From contig VGID01000001.1 in assembly GCA_016868035.1 (NCBI GenBank), forward strand, positions 198,509-262,508: DNA of 64,000 nt, read 5' to 3'. The DNA is from Betaproteobacteria bacterium. Its GTDB lineage: Bacteria > Pseudomonadota > Gammaproteobacteria > Burkholderiales > SG8-41. Below are positions 13,582-64,000 of this stretch, one piece after another (positions within the stretch are counted from its first letter, which is position 1; every line of letters starts with the position of its first letter). The translations under genes were made by a program, and so were the position numbers. The notes below the pieces were generated by a model. It was not told the origin of the DNA, did no database searches, and saw only the letters and a list, made by a program, of their open reading frames with translations.

Positions 13582-13664
13582 GAGCCTGGCCCCGCTTCCT
13601 GTAGGCGCTGCGGAAAAGGGCGAATTCTATTGCGAATCAGGCGCCTGTGTCAAACTACGTCAAG

Positions 13665-13763
13665 CGGAGAGCGGTAAGCGGTCAGCAGTGAGCAGGGACT
13701 GGCGGGCAAGGAGCTTGCACGGGTCCGATTTCACTGTTTACCGCTCACCGTTTACCGCTTACC
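13665..13763. repeat. heptad-periodic inverted-arm element C (CGGTAAG/CGGTCAG arm, core, CCGCTCA/CCGTTTA arm)
   Basis: Lies in the divergent region between rplM and the DUF218 gene. Its core is the reverse complement of the core shared by elements L, P and Q. Confidence 0.8.
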
Positions 13764-13773
13764 CGATGCTAAA

Positions 13774-23025: not shown

Positions 23026-23142
23026 GCGTTTCGAGTTCCGAGTTCCGGGTTCAAGGTTCAAGGTTCCGGGTTTAACGTTGCCCGTTCAGAGTTCGTGGTC
23101 TCGAACTTTGAACGTTGAACTTTGAACTTGGAACTTTGAACG
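23026..23142. repeat. heptad-periodic inverted-arm element G (7 x GAGTTCC/AGGTTCA, core, 5.7 x GAACTTT)
   Basis: Starts 8 nt after the apaG stop. Its core TTGCCCGTTCAGAGTTCGTGGTCTC resembles the core of element I. Confidence 0.88.
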
Positions 23143-32795: not shown

Positions 32796-32883
32796 AGGCA
32801 GAAAGCGGAAGGCGGAGGGGAACTGCCCGTTCGGGGATCTGGTCTTTTCCTTCATCCTTCATCCTTCATCCTTCCGCCTTCTA
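32790..32883. repeat. heptad-periodic inverted-arm element I (GGATGAA/GGCGGAA arm, core, 5 x CCTTCAT arm)
   Basis: The first heptad contains the ybeY TGA. The right arm ends 6 nt before the corC ATG. Confidence 0.88.
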
Positions 32884-33716: not shown

Positions 33717-35294
33717 ATGATGGCGGAAGGCGGAAGGCGGAAGGATGCCGTCGCATCTGCTCTGCCCTTCCTCCTCGTTTTCGTCGTCGGCGCAGTGGCC
33801 GTGCTCGGCTTCGCGCCGTTCCGCCTGTTCCCGCTGCCCATCCTCACCGTCGCGCTGCTGCTCGCGTTATGGCTGCGCGCGGGCAGCCCGCGCGCGGCGG
33901 CCGCGCTTGGCTTCGCGTACGGGCTCGCATTCTTCCTCGCCGGCGCCTCGTGGGTGTACGTGAGCCTGCACGAGTTCGGCTCGATGCCGGCGCCGCTCGC
34001 CGCGCTCGCGACTTTCCTGTTCTGCGCCGTGCTGGCGCTGTTTCCCGCGCTTGCCGGCTATGCCTGCGCGAGGACCGCCCTGCCCCCGCCGTTCGCGCTC
34101 GGGCTGCTCGCGCCGGCGGCATGGACGCTGGCGGAATGGACGAGGGGATGGATCTTCACCGGCTTTCCGTGGCTCGCACTCGGTTACTCGCAGATCCCGG
34201 CGAGCCCGCTCGCGGGCTACGCGCCGCTGCTGGGCATCCACGGCGTCACGCTGGCCGGCGCATTGACGGCGGGCCTCCTCGTCGTGCTGTGGCAACGCGT
34301 TACAGCGAGGGATGAAGGACCGGGCGACCAGCGCAAACGGGGCCTGACCTTCCTCGTTCTGCCTTCTGCCTTCTGCCTTCTGGCGATCTGGCTCGGCGGG
34401 TGGGCGCTCCAGCAGGTCCGGTGGACCGAGCCGGAGGGCGACCCGGTCACCGTGAGCCTGCTCCAGGGCAACATCTCGCAGGAGCTCAAGTGGCGCGAGG
34501 ACCGCGTGCGCACCACGCTCGAGACCTACCGCACGCTCGCCGAGAACGCGCCGGGCCGGCTCATCGTAATGCCCGAGACCGCGCTGCCGCTGTTTCTGGA
34601 CCAGGTACCGCACGAGTACCTGTCATCGCTCGCGGAGCACGCGCGGAAGAACGGCGGCGACATCCTGATCGGGGTGCCGGAGCGCGTGCCCGGCGGCGCG
34701 TACTTCAACAGCGTGCTCTCGCTCGGCTCCGCGCCGGCCCAGGGCTACCGCAAATCGCACCTGGTACCGTTCGGGGAATTCATCCCGCTGCGCCCGGTGC
34801 TCGGATGGATCGTGGGCGTGCTCGCGATCCCGCTGCAGGATTTTTCCGCGGGTGAAGCAACGCAGCGCCCGCTCGCGGTGGCGGGACAGCGGGTAGCGGT
34901 CAACATCTGCTACGAGGACGCGTTCGGGGAGGAGATCATCCGCCAGCTGCCGGAGGCGAGCCTGCTCGTCAACGTGAGCAACGTCGCGTGGTTCGGGCGC
35001 TCGATCGCCCCGCAGCAGCACCTGCAGATCTCGCAGGCGCGCGCGCTGGAGACGGGGCGCTACATGCTGCGCTCGACCAACACCGGGGTCACGGCCACGA
35101 TCAATCCGAGGGGCGAAGTTGCGGCCATCGCACCGGAGTTCACCGCCGCGATCGTGACCGACACGGTGCAGGGTCACCGGGGGCTGACCCCCTACGCGCG
35201 CTGGGGGAATTACCCCGCGCTCGCGCTCTGTATCGCGCTCTGGGCGGGCGCCGTGGTGGCGGGAAGGCGCCGGCGCGACACCTCCCGCAACTGA
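33717..35294 (+). CDS. lnt: apolipoprotein N-acyltransferase
   Basis: 525 aa with multiple N-terminal TM helices and a C-terminal CN-hydrolase domain (NICYED). Confidence 0.93.
   Translation: MMAEGGRRKDAVASALPFLLVFVVGAVAVLGFAPFRLFPLPILTVALLLALWLRAGSPRAAAALGFAYGLAFFLAGASWVYVSLHEFGSMPAPLAALATFLFCAVLALFPALAGYACARTALPPPFALGLLAPAAWTLAEWTRGWIFTGFPWLALGYSQIPASPLAGYAPLLGIHGVTLAGALTAGLLVVLWQRVTARDEGPGDQRKRGLTFLVLPSAFCLLAIWLGGWALQQVRWTEPEGDPVTVSLLQGNISQELKWREDRVRTTLETYRTLAENAPGRLIVMPETALPLFLDQVPHEYLSSLAEHARKNGGDILIGVPERVPGGAYFNSVLSLGSAPAQGYRKSHLVPFGEFIPLRPVLGWIVGVLAIPLQDFSAGEATQRPLAVAGQRVAVNICYEDAFGEEIIRQLPEASLLVNVSNVAWFGRSIAPQQHLQISQARALETGRYMLRSTNTGVTATINPRGEVAAIAPEFTAAIVTDTVQGHRGLTPYARWGNYPALALCIALWAGAVVAGRRRRDTSRN
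33722..33749. repeat. heptad array J (3 x GGCGGAA + GGATGCC) inside the first codons of lnt
   Basis: Encodes residues AEGGRRKD of the predicted Lnt N-terminus. Same heptad flavour as element I, about 900 nt upstream. Confidence 0.75.
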
Positions 35295-40138: not shown

Positions 40139-40863
40139 CGCCGGGGATCATCACGCGATCGCTACTCTTCGCGCTGATCCAGGTCGTCGCAACACCCCTG
40201 TTCGCGCTCGCTGCGCTCGCGACGTTTCCCTTCAAGCCGCTCGCCCGCTACCGCGTCGTCACTGCATGGTCACGACTGATGGTCGCATCCGCCACGCGGC
40301 TCTGCGGGATACGTTACCGCGTGCTCGGCGCCGAGCGCCTGCCGCGCCCGCCATTCATCGTGCTCGCGAAGCACCAGTCCGCGTGGGAGACGCTCGTGTT
40401 CCAGGTGATTCTTCCCCCGCAGGTATGGGTGATCAAGCGCGGCCTGCTGTGGATCCCCTTCTTCGGCTGGGGTCTGGCAATGCTCTCCCCGATCGCGATC
40501 GACCGCGGCGCCGGGCGCCGGGCGCTGCGCCAGATGCTCGAGCAGGGACGCGAGCGGCTGGCGCAGGGCTTCTGCATCGTCATCTTCCCGGAGGGCACGC
40601 GCGTTCCCCCGGGCGCGCGCGGTCAGTATCAACCCGGCGGCGCGTGGCTCGCGGTGAAGACCGCGACGACGGTGGTGCCGGTCGCGCACAACGCGGGCGA
40701 AGTATGGCAGCGCCGGGCTTTGTTCAGGCGCCCCGGGTTGGTTACCGTGAGCATCGGCCCGCCGATCGAGCCCGCCGGCCTCGAGCCCGAGGAGCTCAAC
40801 CGCAAGGTGGAGGACTGGATCGAAGGGGAGATGCAGCGCATCGGCAACGACCCTAGGCGGTGA
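40135..40863 (+). CDS. plsC: 1-acyl-sn-glycerol-3-phosphate acyltransferase
   Basis: 242 aa within ORF 39679..40863. Motifs AKHQSAWE (HX4D variant) and FPEGTR. ATGA overlap with the gmhB stop. Confidence 0.86.
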   Translation: MTPGIITRSLLFALIQVVATPLFALAALATFPFKPLARYRVVTAWSRLMVASATRLCGIRYRVLGAERLPRPPFIVLAKHQSAWETLVFQVILPPQVWVIKRGLLWIPFFGWGLAMLSPIAIDRGAGRRALRQMLEQGRERLAQGFCIVIFPEGTRVPPGARGQYQPGGAWLAVKTATTVVPVAHNAGEVWQRRALFRRPGLVTVSIGPPIEPAGLEPEELNRKVEDWIEGEMQRIGNDPRR

Positions 40864-40990
40864 ACGGTGAACGGTGAACGGTGAACGGTGAACGGTGAAC
40901 GGTGAACGGTGAACGGCAGAAACGGACCCGCGTTTTCGTGGAAGTTCTCCGCTTACGGTTTCTTGCACTGCTCGCCGCCGACCGCTTACC
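40859..40990. repeat. heptad-periodic inverted-arm element L (8 x GGTGAAC, conserved core, degenerate GCTTACC-type arm)
   Basis: The first heptad contains the plsC TGA. Core AGAAACGGACCCGCGTTTTCGTGGAAGTTCTCCGC is shared with elements P, Q and C. Confidence 0.9.
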
Positions 40991-41000
40991 ATACCTGCCC

Positions 41001-41156
41001 ATGCGCGCCTTGCTTCCGATGATCGTCCTCACCGCGCTCGTGGCCGGGTGCGGCTACAAGACGCCCCTCACCCTGCCCAAGCCCAAGCCCGAGGCGCAAA
41101 AGCCCGAAACGCCCGCGCCGATAAAGCCGGACGAAAAGAAGCCCCCGGCTTCGTGA
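41001..41156 (+). CDS. lptM: small lipoprotein LptM/YifL-like (51 aa)
   Basis: Lipobox LVAGC followed by a Pro/Lys-rich tail. The position immediately upstream of lysA is typical. Confidence 0.7.
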   Translation: MRALLPMIVLTALVAGCGYKTPLTLPKPKPEAQKPETPAPIKPDEKKPPAS

Positions 41157-59790: not shown

Positions 59791-60850
59791 TTCGCCGGAT
59801 TACGCCACCGCGCGCGACCGGTTCACGCGCGCCGCGCGGGCGGCGGGGGCCCGGACCGAGGCCATCGCGCTCGATGCGCGCGGCCCGGCGCGCGAGGCGC
59901 TGACCATCGATATCGCCTGGCTCGGCGCGCCGGACGCGGACCGCGTGTTGCTGCATACGAGCGGCATGCACGGCGTCGAGGCGTTCCCCGGGTGCGCGGT
60001 GCAGCTCGCGGCGCTATCCGAATTCGCGGCGCTCGCGCCGGGTTGCGCGCTGGTGCTCGCGCACGCGCTCAATCCATACGGCATGGCAAGGCTGCGGCGC
60101 ACGAACGAGAATAACGTGGACCTCAATCGCAACTTCCTGGCACCCGGCGAGAGCTACCGCGGCTCGCCGCCGCTCTACGCGCGCATCGATGCGGTGCTCA
60201 ATCCCGCGTCACCGCCGGGTTTCGATTTCTTCCGCCTCAAGGCTCTCGGTCTGGTGATGCGCTACGGCATGGGCGCGCTGCGGCAAGCGGTTGCGCAGGG
60301 CCAGTACGACTACCCGCGGGGCCTGTTTTATGGCGGCAGCATGCTCGAGCAAGGCCCCGCCTTGTTTCTCGGCTGGCTCGGGTGCAAACTCGCGCGCGTG
60401 CGCTACCTGTTCGTTCTCGACGCACACAGCGGGCTCGGCGCCTGGGGAGAGCAGACCTTGATTGGCGCGCCCGGCGTGAACGCCACGGGTGCGCTGGAGC
60501 TCGCGGGCGCGCTTGCGCACGCGGTGATCGACCCGGCCGACAGCCGCTCGCCCGCGTACACGATCCGCGGCGGCATGGCGGGTGCGCTGCGGCACACTCT
60601 GCCTGCGGCCCGCATGGACTTCGTGCTGCAGGAAATCGGGACCTGCTCCGCGATCGCGGTTCTTGGCGCCCTGCGCGAGGAGAACCGCTGGCACCACTAC
60701 GGCGCGGCAACGGTGGATCATCCCGCGAAGCTCGCGTTGCGCGAGGCGCTGTGCCCGGGTTCACCGGTCTGGCGCCGGCGCGTGCTCGCGCACGGCCGTG
60801 GCCTGCTCGAGCGCGCGGCGGTGTGGACGTGGAACTACGGTGAACGGTGA
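59765..60850 (+). CDS. DUF2817-like M14-type metallopeptidase-fold protein
   Basis: 361 aa. FSPDYATARDRF N-terminus and the SGMHGVEAF zinc-site-like motif. The start is uncertain. Confidence 0.78.
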   Translation: MNSEPGTFFSPDYATARDRFTRAARAAGARTEAIALDARGPAREALTIDIAWLGAPDADRVLLHTSGMHGVEAFPGCAVQLAALSEFAALAPGCALVLAHALNPYGMARLRRTNENNVDLNRNFLAPGESYRGSPPLYARIDAVLNPASPPGFDFFRLKALGLVMRYGMGALRQAVAQGQYDYPRGLFYGGSMLEQGPALFLGWLGCKLARVRYLFVLDAHSGLGAWGEQTLIGAPGVNATGALELAGALAHAVIDPADSRSPAYTIRGGMAGALRHTLPAARMDFVLQEIGTCSAIAVLGALREENRWHHYGAATVDHPAKLALREALCPGSPVWRRRVLAHGRGLLERAAVWTWNYGER

Positions 60851-60936
60851 ACGGTGAACGGTGAATGGCGAACGGCAAAATCCGACCCGCGCTCTTCTGG
60901 AAGTTTCCCGCTCGCTGCTCACCGCTTACCGCTCAC
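60838..60936. repeat. heptad-periodic inverted-arm element P (4 x CGGTGAA + 2 variants, conserved core, 4 x CGCTCAC/CGCTTAC)
   Basis: The second heptad supplies the stop codon of the DUF2817-like gene. Core AAAATCCGACCCGCGCTCTTCTGGAAGTTTCCCGC. Confidence 0.9.
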
Positions 60937-60948
60937 TAGAGGACCTTC

Positions 60949-61356
60949 ATGACGTGTGAACTGTGCGTGGAAACCGGCGGCACGCTCCTGTGGCGCGATG
61001 AGCGGTGCCGCGTGGTGCTCGTGCCCGAGCCGGGTTATCCGGGTTACTGCCGTGTGATCTGGAACGCGCACGTCAGGGAAATGACCGATCTCGGCGAGCA
61101 CGAGCGCGCCGCGATCATGCGCGTCGTCTTCGGAGTGGAGCGCGTGTTGCGCGACTTGTTCGCGCCGGAGAAGGTCAATCTGGCGAGCTTCGGCAACCTC
61201 ACCCCGCATCTGCACTGGCACGTGATCGCCCGCTTCCGCGACGACCCGCACTTTCCCGGCACGGTTTGGGGCGCGCGGCAGCGCGATCTCCACCCGCCTT
61301 CTGCCGGCGCTCATGCAGAGCAAATCGGAGCCGCGCTTGCCCGGCGGCTGGGATGA
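60949..61356 (+). CDS. HIT-family nucleotide hydrolase/transferase
   Basis: 135 aa with histidine triad PHLHWHVI. Confidence 0.88.
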   Translation: MTCELCVETGGTLLWRDERCRVVLVPEPGYPGYCRVIWNAHVREMTDLGEHERAAIMRVVFGVERVLRDLFAPEKVNLASFGNLTPHLHWHVIARFRDDPHFPGTVWGARQRDLHPPSAGAHAEQIGAALARRLG

Positions 61357-63224: not shown

Positions 63225-63358
63225 GGGTAAGCGGTAAGCGGTAAGCGGTAAGCGGTAAGCGGTAAGCGGTAAGCGGTAAGCGGTAAGCGGTAAGCGGTAA
63301 AATTGGACCGGGTTTCTCTACGAAGTTCCCTGCTCACCGCTTACTGCTTACTGCTTAA
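63225..63358. repeat. heptad-periodic inverted-arm element Q (11 heptads, 9 perfect CGGTAAG, conserved core, 4 x TGCTTAC-type)
   Basis: Lies between convergent paralog B and the histidine kinase gene. Core AAAATTGGACCGGGTTTCTCTACGAAGTTCCCTGC. Confidence 0.92.
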
Positions 63359-63369
63359 GGACTCTCTCC

Positions 63370-64000
63370 TCACCGGTTTTCCGCGCGGCGGCCCGCCCCG
63401 TTCGACCCGTCCTCCCGCTCTTCGCGCCTCTCGGGCGCAAGGATCCGTTCTTCCGGAAACACGGCGCTGAACGTGCTCCCGCGTCCGGGTTCGCTCGCGA
63501 TCTCGAGGCGCGCCTGGTGGCGGCTGAGCACGTGCTTGACGATCGCGAGCCCCAGCCCGGTGCCGCCGGTCTCGCGCGAACGGCCGCGGTCCACCCGATA
63601 GAAGCGCTCGGTGATGCGTGCGAGGTGCTGCTGCTCGATCCCGATCCCCGTGTCGCGCACGCTGAACAGCGCGTGGCCGCCGCGGCGCTGCCAGCTGATG
63701 ACGACCTCTCCGCCGTCCGGGGTATAGCGGATCGCGTTGGTGACGAGGTTGCCGAACGCGCTGCGCAGCTCCTCTTCGCTCCCCAGGAGCCAGGTGCCGC
63801 CCGCCGAATCGAGCAGCACGCGGTGCCGGCCGGCCGACAACGCCAGCGCCTCCCGGTACAGCGCGTGCGTGAGCCCCGGCACGTCCACGGGCTCGGCCTG
63901 CAGCGGGTAGCGTGCGCTCTCCAGGCGCGAGAGCATCAGCAAATCTTCCACGAGCCGCTGCATGCGCCGCGTCTGGTCCACCATCAGCGGCAGCGACCGT
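63370..64000 (-). CDS. sensor histidine kinase, C-terminal part (PhoR-like); 5' end lies beyond the window
   Basis: HisKA end (LVEDLLMLSRLE) and HATPase_c N, G1 and G2 boxes (NLVTNAIRY, DTGIGI, GGTGLGLAIV). The frame stays open to position 64000. Confidence 0.85.
   Translation of the reverse strand, partial: RSLPLMVDQTRRMQRLVEDLLMLSRLESARYPLQAEPVDVPGLTHALYREALALSAGRHRVLLDSAGGTWLLGSEEELRSAFGNLVTNAIRYTPDGGEVVISWQRRGGHALFSVRDTGIGIEQQHLARITERFYRVDRGRSRETGGTGLGLAIVKHVLSRHQARLEIASEPGRGSTFSAVFPEERILAPERREEREDGSNGAGRRAENR

Follow-up and report, generated by a model that had tools for sequence, protein, structure and literature searches.

The window analysed here is a 64,000-nt stretch of DNA (C1:198509-262508) from the genome, G000, of an uncultured freshwater betaproteobacterium of Burkholderiales type, whose 3.9-Mb assembly consists of 127 contigs (C1, C2 and so on) with about 66% G+C. 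Genes were called with a position-specific GC caller (GC1>GC2) and checked against Pfam, and Tandem Repeats Finder places paired period-7 arrays all along the window. In four elements, named P, L, Q and C, a short core separates a left heptamer array from an inverted right one. P follows a DUF2817 gene and precedes a HIT gene, L lies between an acyltransferase gene and a small lipoprotein gene, Q borders a histidine-kinase gene, and C separates rplM from a DUF218 gene. The loops of two further hairpins, G and I, had been considered a second core type. The features are listed below.

60837-60936, plus strand: element P as a whole, an ACGGTGA run, a core of about 35 nt and a roughly reverse-complementary run of the CGCTCAC/CGCTTAC type
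60837-60875, plus strand: left arm of P, (ACGGTGA) x about 5.6
60877-60908, plus strand: core of P, with left block AAAATCCGAC (60877-60886), 13-nt spacer (60887-60899) and right block GAAGTTTCC (60900-60908)
60908-60936, plus strand: right arm of P, a mixed set of YGCTYAC units that roughly complement the left arm; start of the HIT gene at 60949
40858-40916, plus strand: left arm of L, (CGGTGAA) x 8.4, perfect
40918-40948, plus strand: core of L, AGAAACGGAC, 13-nt spacer, GAAGTTCT
40950-41000, plus strand: right arm of L, degenerate, its end CGCTTACCATACCTGCCC lying directly before the ATG of the lipoprotein gene at 41002
63226-63300, plus strand: left arm of Q, (GGTAAGC) x 10.7, perfect
63302-63329, plus strand: core of Q, ATTGGAC (63302-63308), 13-nt spacer (63309-63321), GAAGTTCC (63322-63329)
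63330-63357, plus strand: right arm of Q, units CTGCTCA CCGCTTA CTGCTTA CTGCTTA; end of the convergent histidine-kinase gene near 63370
13655-13765, minus strand: element C as a whole, in reverse orientation between the divergent genes rplM (minus) and DUF218 (plus)
13763-13731 and 13700-13660, minus strand: left and right arms of C
13731-13710, minus strand: degenerate core of C, AAATCGGAC (complement of 13723-13731) and AAGCTCC (complement of 13710-13716)
23075-23102, plus strand: loop of G, between GTTCAAG-type arms; its sole match in the genome is I
32818-32848, plus strand: loop of I, between GGATGAA/TCCTTCA arms; sole partner of G

The first-pass annotation had proposed that P, L, Q and, in reverse, C share one core. 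The sequences of all four were confirmed at their positions, and P and L match without gaps at 26 of 35 positions, the core of P being a diverged member of a P/L subfamily. C is indeed a reversed member of the family, but a degenerate one, in which AAGCTCC replaces GAAGTTCC and the spacer measures about 6 nt instead of 13 (E=0.02 in the nhmmer search described below). It had also been proposed that the arms differ around the shared core. Within the window this is only partly right and the arms are not unrelated, since P, L, Q and C all have GGTRARC units on the left and YGCTYAC units on the right: the units are GGTGAAC in P and L, GGTAAGC in Q and a mixture in C, all of them transition variants of GGTRARC. 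Truly different arms were found around the core in three other genomes of the genus (G013, G007 and G043). The suggested second core type was not borne out. It occurs twice genome-wide, in G and I, and the next matches (E>2) fall at array edges; because about 19 of 23 matching positions between two of some 500 loops are within chance, G and I do not make a family.

Some heptamer arrays touch coding sequence. The stop codon of the DUF2817 gene upstream of P is the TGA at 60848-60850 of an early repeat unit, and that of the acyltransferase gene upstream of L is the TGA at 40861-40863, likewise in an early unit; the unit is GGTGAAC in both. Three units of 7 nt suffice to place TGA in all frames, so that such an array ends translation at any copy number. 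The apolipoprotein N-acyltransferase (Lnt) gene at 33717-35294 contains (GGCGGAA)x3.3 at codons 2-9 (33722-33744) and (TTCTGCC)x3.7 (34357-34382) in the linker between the LNT_N and CN_hydrolase domains, and its reading frame is open across both arrays. About 17-21 kb upstream of the window, C1:177000-182000 holds arrays of CGGATCA, TCACGGA, GGTTCGA and AGGCGAA/ACTTTCG, which according to a rough gene caller lie inside one long gene for an ABC-ATPase-like, possibly UvrA-like, protein.

A genus-restricted foldback repeat with a two-block core

Over the whole genome, arrays of at least 21 nt number 337 for period 7, against 4-21 for periods 5, 6, 8 and 9. Heptamer arrays fall into many unit families and occupy about 508 loci, about 93% of them outside genes. 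The cores of P, L, Q and C were made into an nhmmer profile; searched against the genome with one iteration, it returned 41 full-length copies, 37 of them with E<1e-3, besides several partial right halves; similarity among the copies is retained in two blocks. The layout is the same throughout: first comes a long array of uniform heptamers, either GGTAAGC or the transition variant GGTGAAC, then the core of about 35 nt and finally a shorter, heterogeneous, inverted YGCTYAC array, and the orientation of core to arms is identical in all 41 full copies. Subfamilies with near-identical cores sit at unlinked, dispersed loci.

The strict pattern ATTGGAC-N12-16-GAAGTTCC is found 12 times in G000; two further members of the genus together have 5 matches, as against a single match in 400 other genomes from 61 families of the order, where the reversed control pattern gave 2. 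A sequence-only covariance model found at least 31 copies in G000, 3 in G046, 3 in G013, 1 in G007 and 1 in G043, and no copies in 28 other members of the genus. The core family is real, beyond chance and lineage-restricted, and P, L, Q and the decayed C belong to an intergenic foldback repeat that is non-coding and restricted to the genus.

Alignment of the 41 copies gives a core of AAGATTGGAC, 13 nt and GAAGTTCC(C)CGC, the two blocks being 13 nt apart in nearly all copies. No copy varies at G8, A9, G29 or T31, and the columns richest in information are 8-9 (GA), 29-31 (GTT) and 34 (C). Within the set, the blocks have a pairwise identity of 0.83, as against 0.44 for the spacer. When G000 is compared with G013/G007, the blocks retain an identity of 0.895 with the 13-nt spacing kept, whereas the spacer, at 0.224, has reached the level of random sequence. 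This pattern points to selection on the blocks and on the length of the spacer while its sequence drifts to randomness. A partial second copy of the right half of the core (TTCTTGAAGTTCCCCGCTCAC) occurs in some right arms, about 45 nt downstream of the full core (C38:38027-38049, C8:79560-79582, C35:21701-21724 and C56:10341-10369), and looks like a tandem duplication of right block plus arm.

The arms behave differently from the core. In G013, G007 and G043 both blocks stand between (GTTCAAG)n or (GTTTCAA)n on one side and NNGGAAC/TTGAAC units on the other, whereas in G046 the arms are of the GGTAAGC type. In Q, the left array counts 11 units in an assembly from the same population (L229) and 10 in the window, and one contig ends within this GGTAAGC array; P is identical across 10 assemblies. 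Together with the contrast between block and spacer identity, the unrelated arms in other species and the variation in left-array copy number uphold the earlier proposal that the core is the constrained part and the arms are free. Left arrays are longer and cleaner than right ones (median 54 nt with 3.6% period-7 mismatches against 18 nt with 8.6%; p=0.002). Moreover, GGTAAGC arrays adjoining a core have a median length of 63.5 nt, compared with 24 nt for those that lack one (p=7e-6). In G000 the core is carried by 30 of 56 GGTAAGC arrays and 2 of 19 GGTGAAC arrays, and by none of the GGTGAGC or GGTAAAC type. A second, smaller loop family was noted at 7 loci in GTTCAAA/GTTCAAG hairpins (e.g., C6:17011, C8:30157 and C24:47175), with ...GCTCCAACCTTGAAC common at the start of the right arm.

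Orthologous spacers record the history of single loci. In G046 the L spacer, flanked by the genes for the acyltransferase and for the small lipoprotein upstream of lysA, holds a core of the same type in GGTAAGC-type arms, and gene order around it is conserved over about 20 kb. Across the genus, this spacer has no element in 4 genomes, a non-heptamer hairpin in 6, GGTRARC-type hairpins with simple loops in 6 and the core in G000 and G046. The cores of P and L are more alike than are L and its G046 ortholog. At the orthologous DUF2817-HIT spacer of P, hairpins with the related units CGTGAAT, CGTGAGC and CCGTGAA enclose unrelated loops. Given these states of the L and P spacers, the arrays of a locus are of long standing, with units that drift, and the core is a patchy add-on. 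In the orthologs of window positions 40860-41000 (L096-L120), the 3' edge of the spacer upstream of the lipoprotein gene is always TACCATCCTGCCCATG; where a species has heptamer hairpins, the final right-arm unit CGCTTACC runs into its conserved TACC, as though local sequence had seeded the arm.

By gene context, 19 of the 41 copies lie in convergent spacers, 8 and 7 in tandem spacers in the two orientations, 2 in divergent spacers, 1 inside a called ORF and 4 at contig ends. Convergent spacers thus hold 19 of 36 copies against a baseline of 12.5% (p=7e-9), derived from 2646 tandem, 454 divergent and 444 convergent spacers. The orientation of the core relative to genes is unbiased (8 against 7 in tandem spacers), which argues for a DNA-level site or a selfish element over a strand-specific RNA signal. 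Replication-strand bias, judged by GC skew, was not significant (5/14 against 12/9; p=0.06).

Candidate readers of the core

Three functions had been suggested for the core: a protein-binding site, a small RNA and a recombination site. RNAalifold predicts 0 pairs and no consensus fold for the core alignment, and the folds of single copies show no excess hairpin over spacer shuffles (mean z -0.24, p=0.17), so a conserved secondary structure, and with it a structured small RNA, found no support. A protein-binding DNA site fits best of the three, because conserved sequence at fixed spacing is combined with lack of covariation and lack of orientation bias; a recombination or transposition site is taken up below as a rival. 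Several known classes of site were compared with the core and rejected. By eye, sigma-54 and IHF sites misfit in spacing or consensus, and in Xer/dif and integron attC sites the conserved parts are wrongly placed. Scans found no sigma-70 promoter and no intrinsic-terminator-like site on P or Q, and the right arms are not followed by a T-run.

Read on the opposite strand, the core becomes GGGAACTTC, 13 nt and GTCCAAT, equivalent to GGAACTT-N15-TCCAA, with a reverse-strand consensus of GGGAACTT-N15-TCCAAT. The sigma-E consensus of E. coli is GGAACTT / TCAAA with a spacing of 15-19 nt, 16 being preferred (PMC1312014; Rhodius et al., 2006). The core resembles sigma-E promoters in all 7 of 7 positions of the -35 element, in a -10 element of TCCAA against TCAAA and in a spacing of 15 nt, within the reported range. 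Across group IV sigma factors, no part of the -35 element is better conserved than AAC (PMC1540707; Lane and Darst, 2006), and the invariant columns of the core coincide with this AAC and with the TC of the -10 element. In element Q the candidate promoter points into the perfect left array:

63303-63329, minus strand: candidate promoter of Q, -35 GGAACTT (complement of 63323-63329), 15 nt, -10 TCCAA (complement of 63303-63307)

A relaxed sigma-E pattern matches 19 times in the genome; 16 of these matches are cores, none lies inside a gene, and one of the 3 others is a sigma-32-like site upstream of htpX. The genome encodes an RpoE ortholog (C7:26160-26732; TIGR02939, 329.9 bits against a cut-off of 236), and the region upstream of rpoE contains GAACTA-N16-TCAGT. 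A co-oriented downstream gene is present for 9 of 36 copies, and the other 27 candidate promoters run antisense into the 3' end of the neighbouring gene. The co-oriented genes encode a KTSC protein, Hsp33 (hslO), YciB/IspA, an HslU-like ATPase, MgtC, BamB, an AstE-like protein, a NosR-like protein and a DUF218 protein, a set that is suggestive at most as support for sigma-E.

Other features speak against a sigma-E promoter. The spacing of 15 nt is at the edge of the E. coli range, 1 short of the preferred 16 and of the N16 upstream of this genome's rpoE; there is no A/T-rich upstream element, and both boxes depart from the consensus in P (-35 GAAACTT, -10 TCGGA) and L (-35 AGAACTT, -10 TCCGT). 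Unlike typical sigma-E promoters, moreover, the motif is mostly antisense to a gene 3' end and rides on a dispersed repeat, and its likeness to sigma-E was noticed after the fact. On these comparisons, sigma-E (RpoE) RNA polymerase is the best candidate reader of the core, and its recognition of the core is a possibility against which the balance still tips. The broader reading, that some protein recognises the core as a two-block DNA site, is in our judgement much more probable than this sub-claim.

The joint explanation to which we incline, by a little, is a foldback repeat with slipping arms and a two-block site that would be read by a protein, for which RpoE is a candidate. The arms are heptanucleotide microsatellites that change by replication slippage and by replacement of unit variants, the arm 5' of the core being long and homogeneous and the other short and heterogeneous. 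One protein would read both blocks on one face of the DNA, about two helical turns apart from centre to centre; if it is the RpoE holoenzyme, it would bind the complement of the core and fire into the long perfect arm. The repeat would spread by copying or by arm-guided recombination and persist at gene 3' ends, where hairpins may do least harm. The family, the contrast between blocks and spacer, the turnover of the arms, the copy-number variant, the gene context and the match to the motif are observed; we infer protein binding, sigma-E dependence and the mode of spread.

A stronger version, which seems unlikely to us on the same sequence data, is that the foldback repeat spreads a ready-made sigma-E promoter. 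About 40 loci would thereby come under the envelope-stress response, mostly antisense into convergent 3' ends and in a few cases in the sense direction (bamB, hslO and the HslU-like gene). Transcription or holoenzyme binding would also drive one-sided slippage, and the long perfect array on the -10 side would follow from this core-driven slippage. A promoter is not needed to explain the arm asymmetry, however, because core-less heptamer hairpins of the genome show, by eye, a similar contrast between a long perfect arm and a heterogeneous one.

Mobility, RNA and neutral alternatives

A rival with a comparably low but real chance of being right is that the blocks are recognised by the enzyme responsible for copying or moving the element, for example a transposase, a recombinase or an HUH/Y1 nuclease. 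The repeat would then be purely selfish and its likeness to sigma-E promoters coincidental. The near-identical core subfamilies at dispersed loci agree with this, as do the patchy distribution in the genus (31 or more copies here, 1-3 in four genomes and none in 28), the presence of one core in different arm types and the enrichment in convergent spacers, which is typical of tolerated selfish repeats. Moreover, 12 core copies form the exchangeable centre of an outer decamer foldback shell (left GTATCAAAAAGA...CCGCCGATGAACGCAGAT, right ATCGGCGTTTATCTGCGGCTAATATTTCTTGAT) that is also found with other centres. This MITE-like shell has 21 paired copies in G000 (e.g., C1:121756-121902 and on C26, C9 and C24) and none in the window. 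Its centres include a minimal 147-nt form, the GGTAAGC hairpin with core, GGTAATG-type hairpins and an ACAGGAT-type hairpin (10 copies). Hairpin modules either enter at the tips of hairpins or are swapped by recombination that uses the repeat arms; no enzyme was found for either route.

The same rival is weakened by the search for its machinery, which yielded no cognate enzyme. Three Y1_Tnp (RAYT-like) matches in the genome are unlinked to the core: the gene on C22 is flanked by GGGTCAGTTCTTGACTTTGCAC-type repeats and lacks heptamer hairpins or cores, the one on C7 has no repeat in its flanks, and the match on C3 has no gene call. Neither a target-site duplication nor a clean empty site was seen for the core elements, and a search for separated half-cores enclosing a gene gave noise and the tandem partial right halves (TTCTTGAAGTTCCCCGCTCAC). 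The ends of an IS481-like insertion sequence are unrelated to the core.

The RAYT-like Y1_Tnp gene at C22:40747-41688 lies between inverted GGGTCAGTTCTTGACTTTGCAC copies, and these repeats may be a separate REP-type family in G000. The insertion sequence, of about 1.35 kb, has at least 10 copies in G000 and was found in this genome alone among 33 members of the genus. Its body is missing from the binned assembly, where it is seen at contig ends (e.g., C2:1-125, C38:38130-38253 and C31:1-125); a complete copy is present at L242:1187-2535. The ends read GGGTAAGTATCAGCGTTCGCAGAACA... and GGGCGAATCTCAGCGTTCGCAGAACA..., with a 17-nt site twice at each end, and the transposase of 383 aa is weakly IS481-like (63 bits against a cut-off of 224). 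All junctions seen abut a heptamer array of any unit (GGTAAGC, GGTAATG, GTCAGCC, CTCAATC, GTGAATC and others).

It is improbable that the element acts as RNA, either as a 3'-UTR or intercistronic hairpin that stabilises or terminates transcripts in the manner of REP sequences, or as a small RNA with the core at its tip. On both strands, the whole of P, of Q and of C forms a long hairpin (z -3.5 to -6.5); a gene end precedes 27 of 36 copies, and the heptamer arrays of Xanthomonas also occur in convergent pairs (PMC4692102). This long-hairpin folding is owed to the arms, however, and the core has no covarying structure. L folds hardly better than shuffled controls (z about -2), many left arms greatly exceed the right in length and so cannot pair over much of their extent, and Rfam, searched at gathering and E-value thresholds, has no family that matches the elements. 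The lack of orientation bias in tandem spacers, of a T-run after the hairpin and of terminator-like sites on P or Q, all noted above, also speaks against such a role.

Least probable, and largely refuted by the sequence comparisons, is that nothing is selected and that the core is conserved through youth of the copies or arm-mediated gene conversion: the core does travel with one arm type per genome, and P and L are more alike than L and its G046 ortholog, but both processes would treat blocks and spacer alike, which the divergence of the spacer between genomes contradicts.

Comparison with known repeat systems

The STRR of heterocystous cyanobacteria are intergenic heptanucleotide repeats, and the arms described here resemble these and other heptanucleotide simple-sequence repeats in several respects. 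They consist of tandem 7-nt units, are mostly intergenic and show an excess of period 7; they often occur as convergent pairs that form stem-loops and are commoner between convergent than between divergent genes; and their copy number varies within a population, as in Q (11 against 10 units). In Xanthomonas, GGGAATC arrays form 70-75 convergent pairs able to fold into stem-loops (Rehm et al., 2015; PMC4692102). Heptamers are the commonest long simple-sequence repeats (PMC4679880, which cites the LSSR of Mrazek et al., 2007). The reports on such repeats describe arrays only, without a two-block core that is kept across species through a change of arm unit, and without a consistent asymmetry between a long perfect and a short heterogeneous arm.

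Heptamers hold this leading place in many bacteria without an agreed function or origin, and the family described here separates two components with opposite dynamics. Arms differ even at orthologous spacers, and the core outlasts both arm replacement and species divergence. We did not find described elsewhere a foldless core of two blocks at constant spacing, its persistence when the arms are replaced, the expansion of the array on one side or the likeness to sigma-E promoters. The core offers a handle for testing: a 28-bp site with two invariant di-/trinucleotide contacts and a named candidate binder. As a sigma-E promoter, it would make this a repeat family that rewires antisense transcription under stress control; as the target of a mobilising enzyme, it would point to the missing machinery behind heptamer hairpins.

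Nostoc punctiforme reportedly carries small non-coding dispersed repeats (SDRs), often within heptamer arrays or miniature transposons. They are said to be 21-27 nt long, to share a predicted hairpin backed by compensatory changes and to be apparently mobile; we know of no enzyme for them. On that description, the core family is likewise dispersed and embedded in heptamer arrays. It differs from the SDRs as so described in its length of about 35 nt, its lack of a conserved fold, its two blocks at fixed spacing and its occurrence in a different phylum.

REP, BIME and REPIN sequences with their RAYT proteins (PMC3116915, PMC3733652) are also short, palindromic and intergenic; they number in the tens to hundreds, favour gene 3' ends, can form hairpins and serve insertion sequences as targets. 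In REP/REPIN elements an unpaired GTAG or CGTC tag stands at one end of a short fixed palindrome (PMC3733652). In contrast, the alignment of 41 core copies has no conserved GTAG or CGTC tag, the arms are variable-number tandem heptamers rather than a fixed palindrome, and the Y1_Tnp gene with readable flanks is bordered by a different repeat (GGGTCAGTTCTTGACTTTGCAC).

[quoted passage not shown] Its arms differ from copy to copy in repeat number and unit, a duplication was not seen, and the only multi-copy insertion sequence found has unrelated ends. The Correia/NEMIS elements of Neisseria are MITEs with promoter elements and a protein-binding site, bounded by 26-bp terminal inverted repeats and a TA target duplication. 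The core family has microsatellites for arms and shows no such duplication, but like Correia/NEMIS it is a dispersed intergenic foldback able to place promoter-like boxes and a protein site beside genes.
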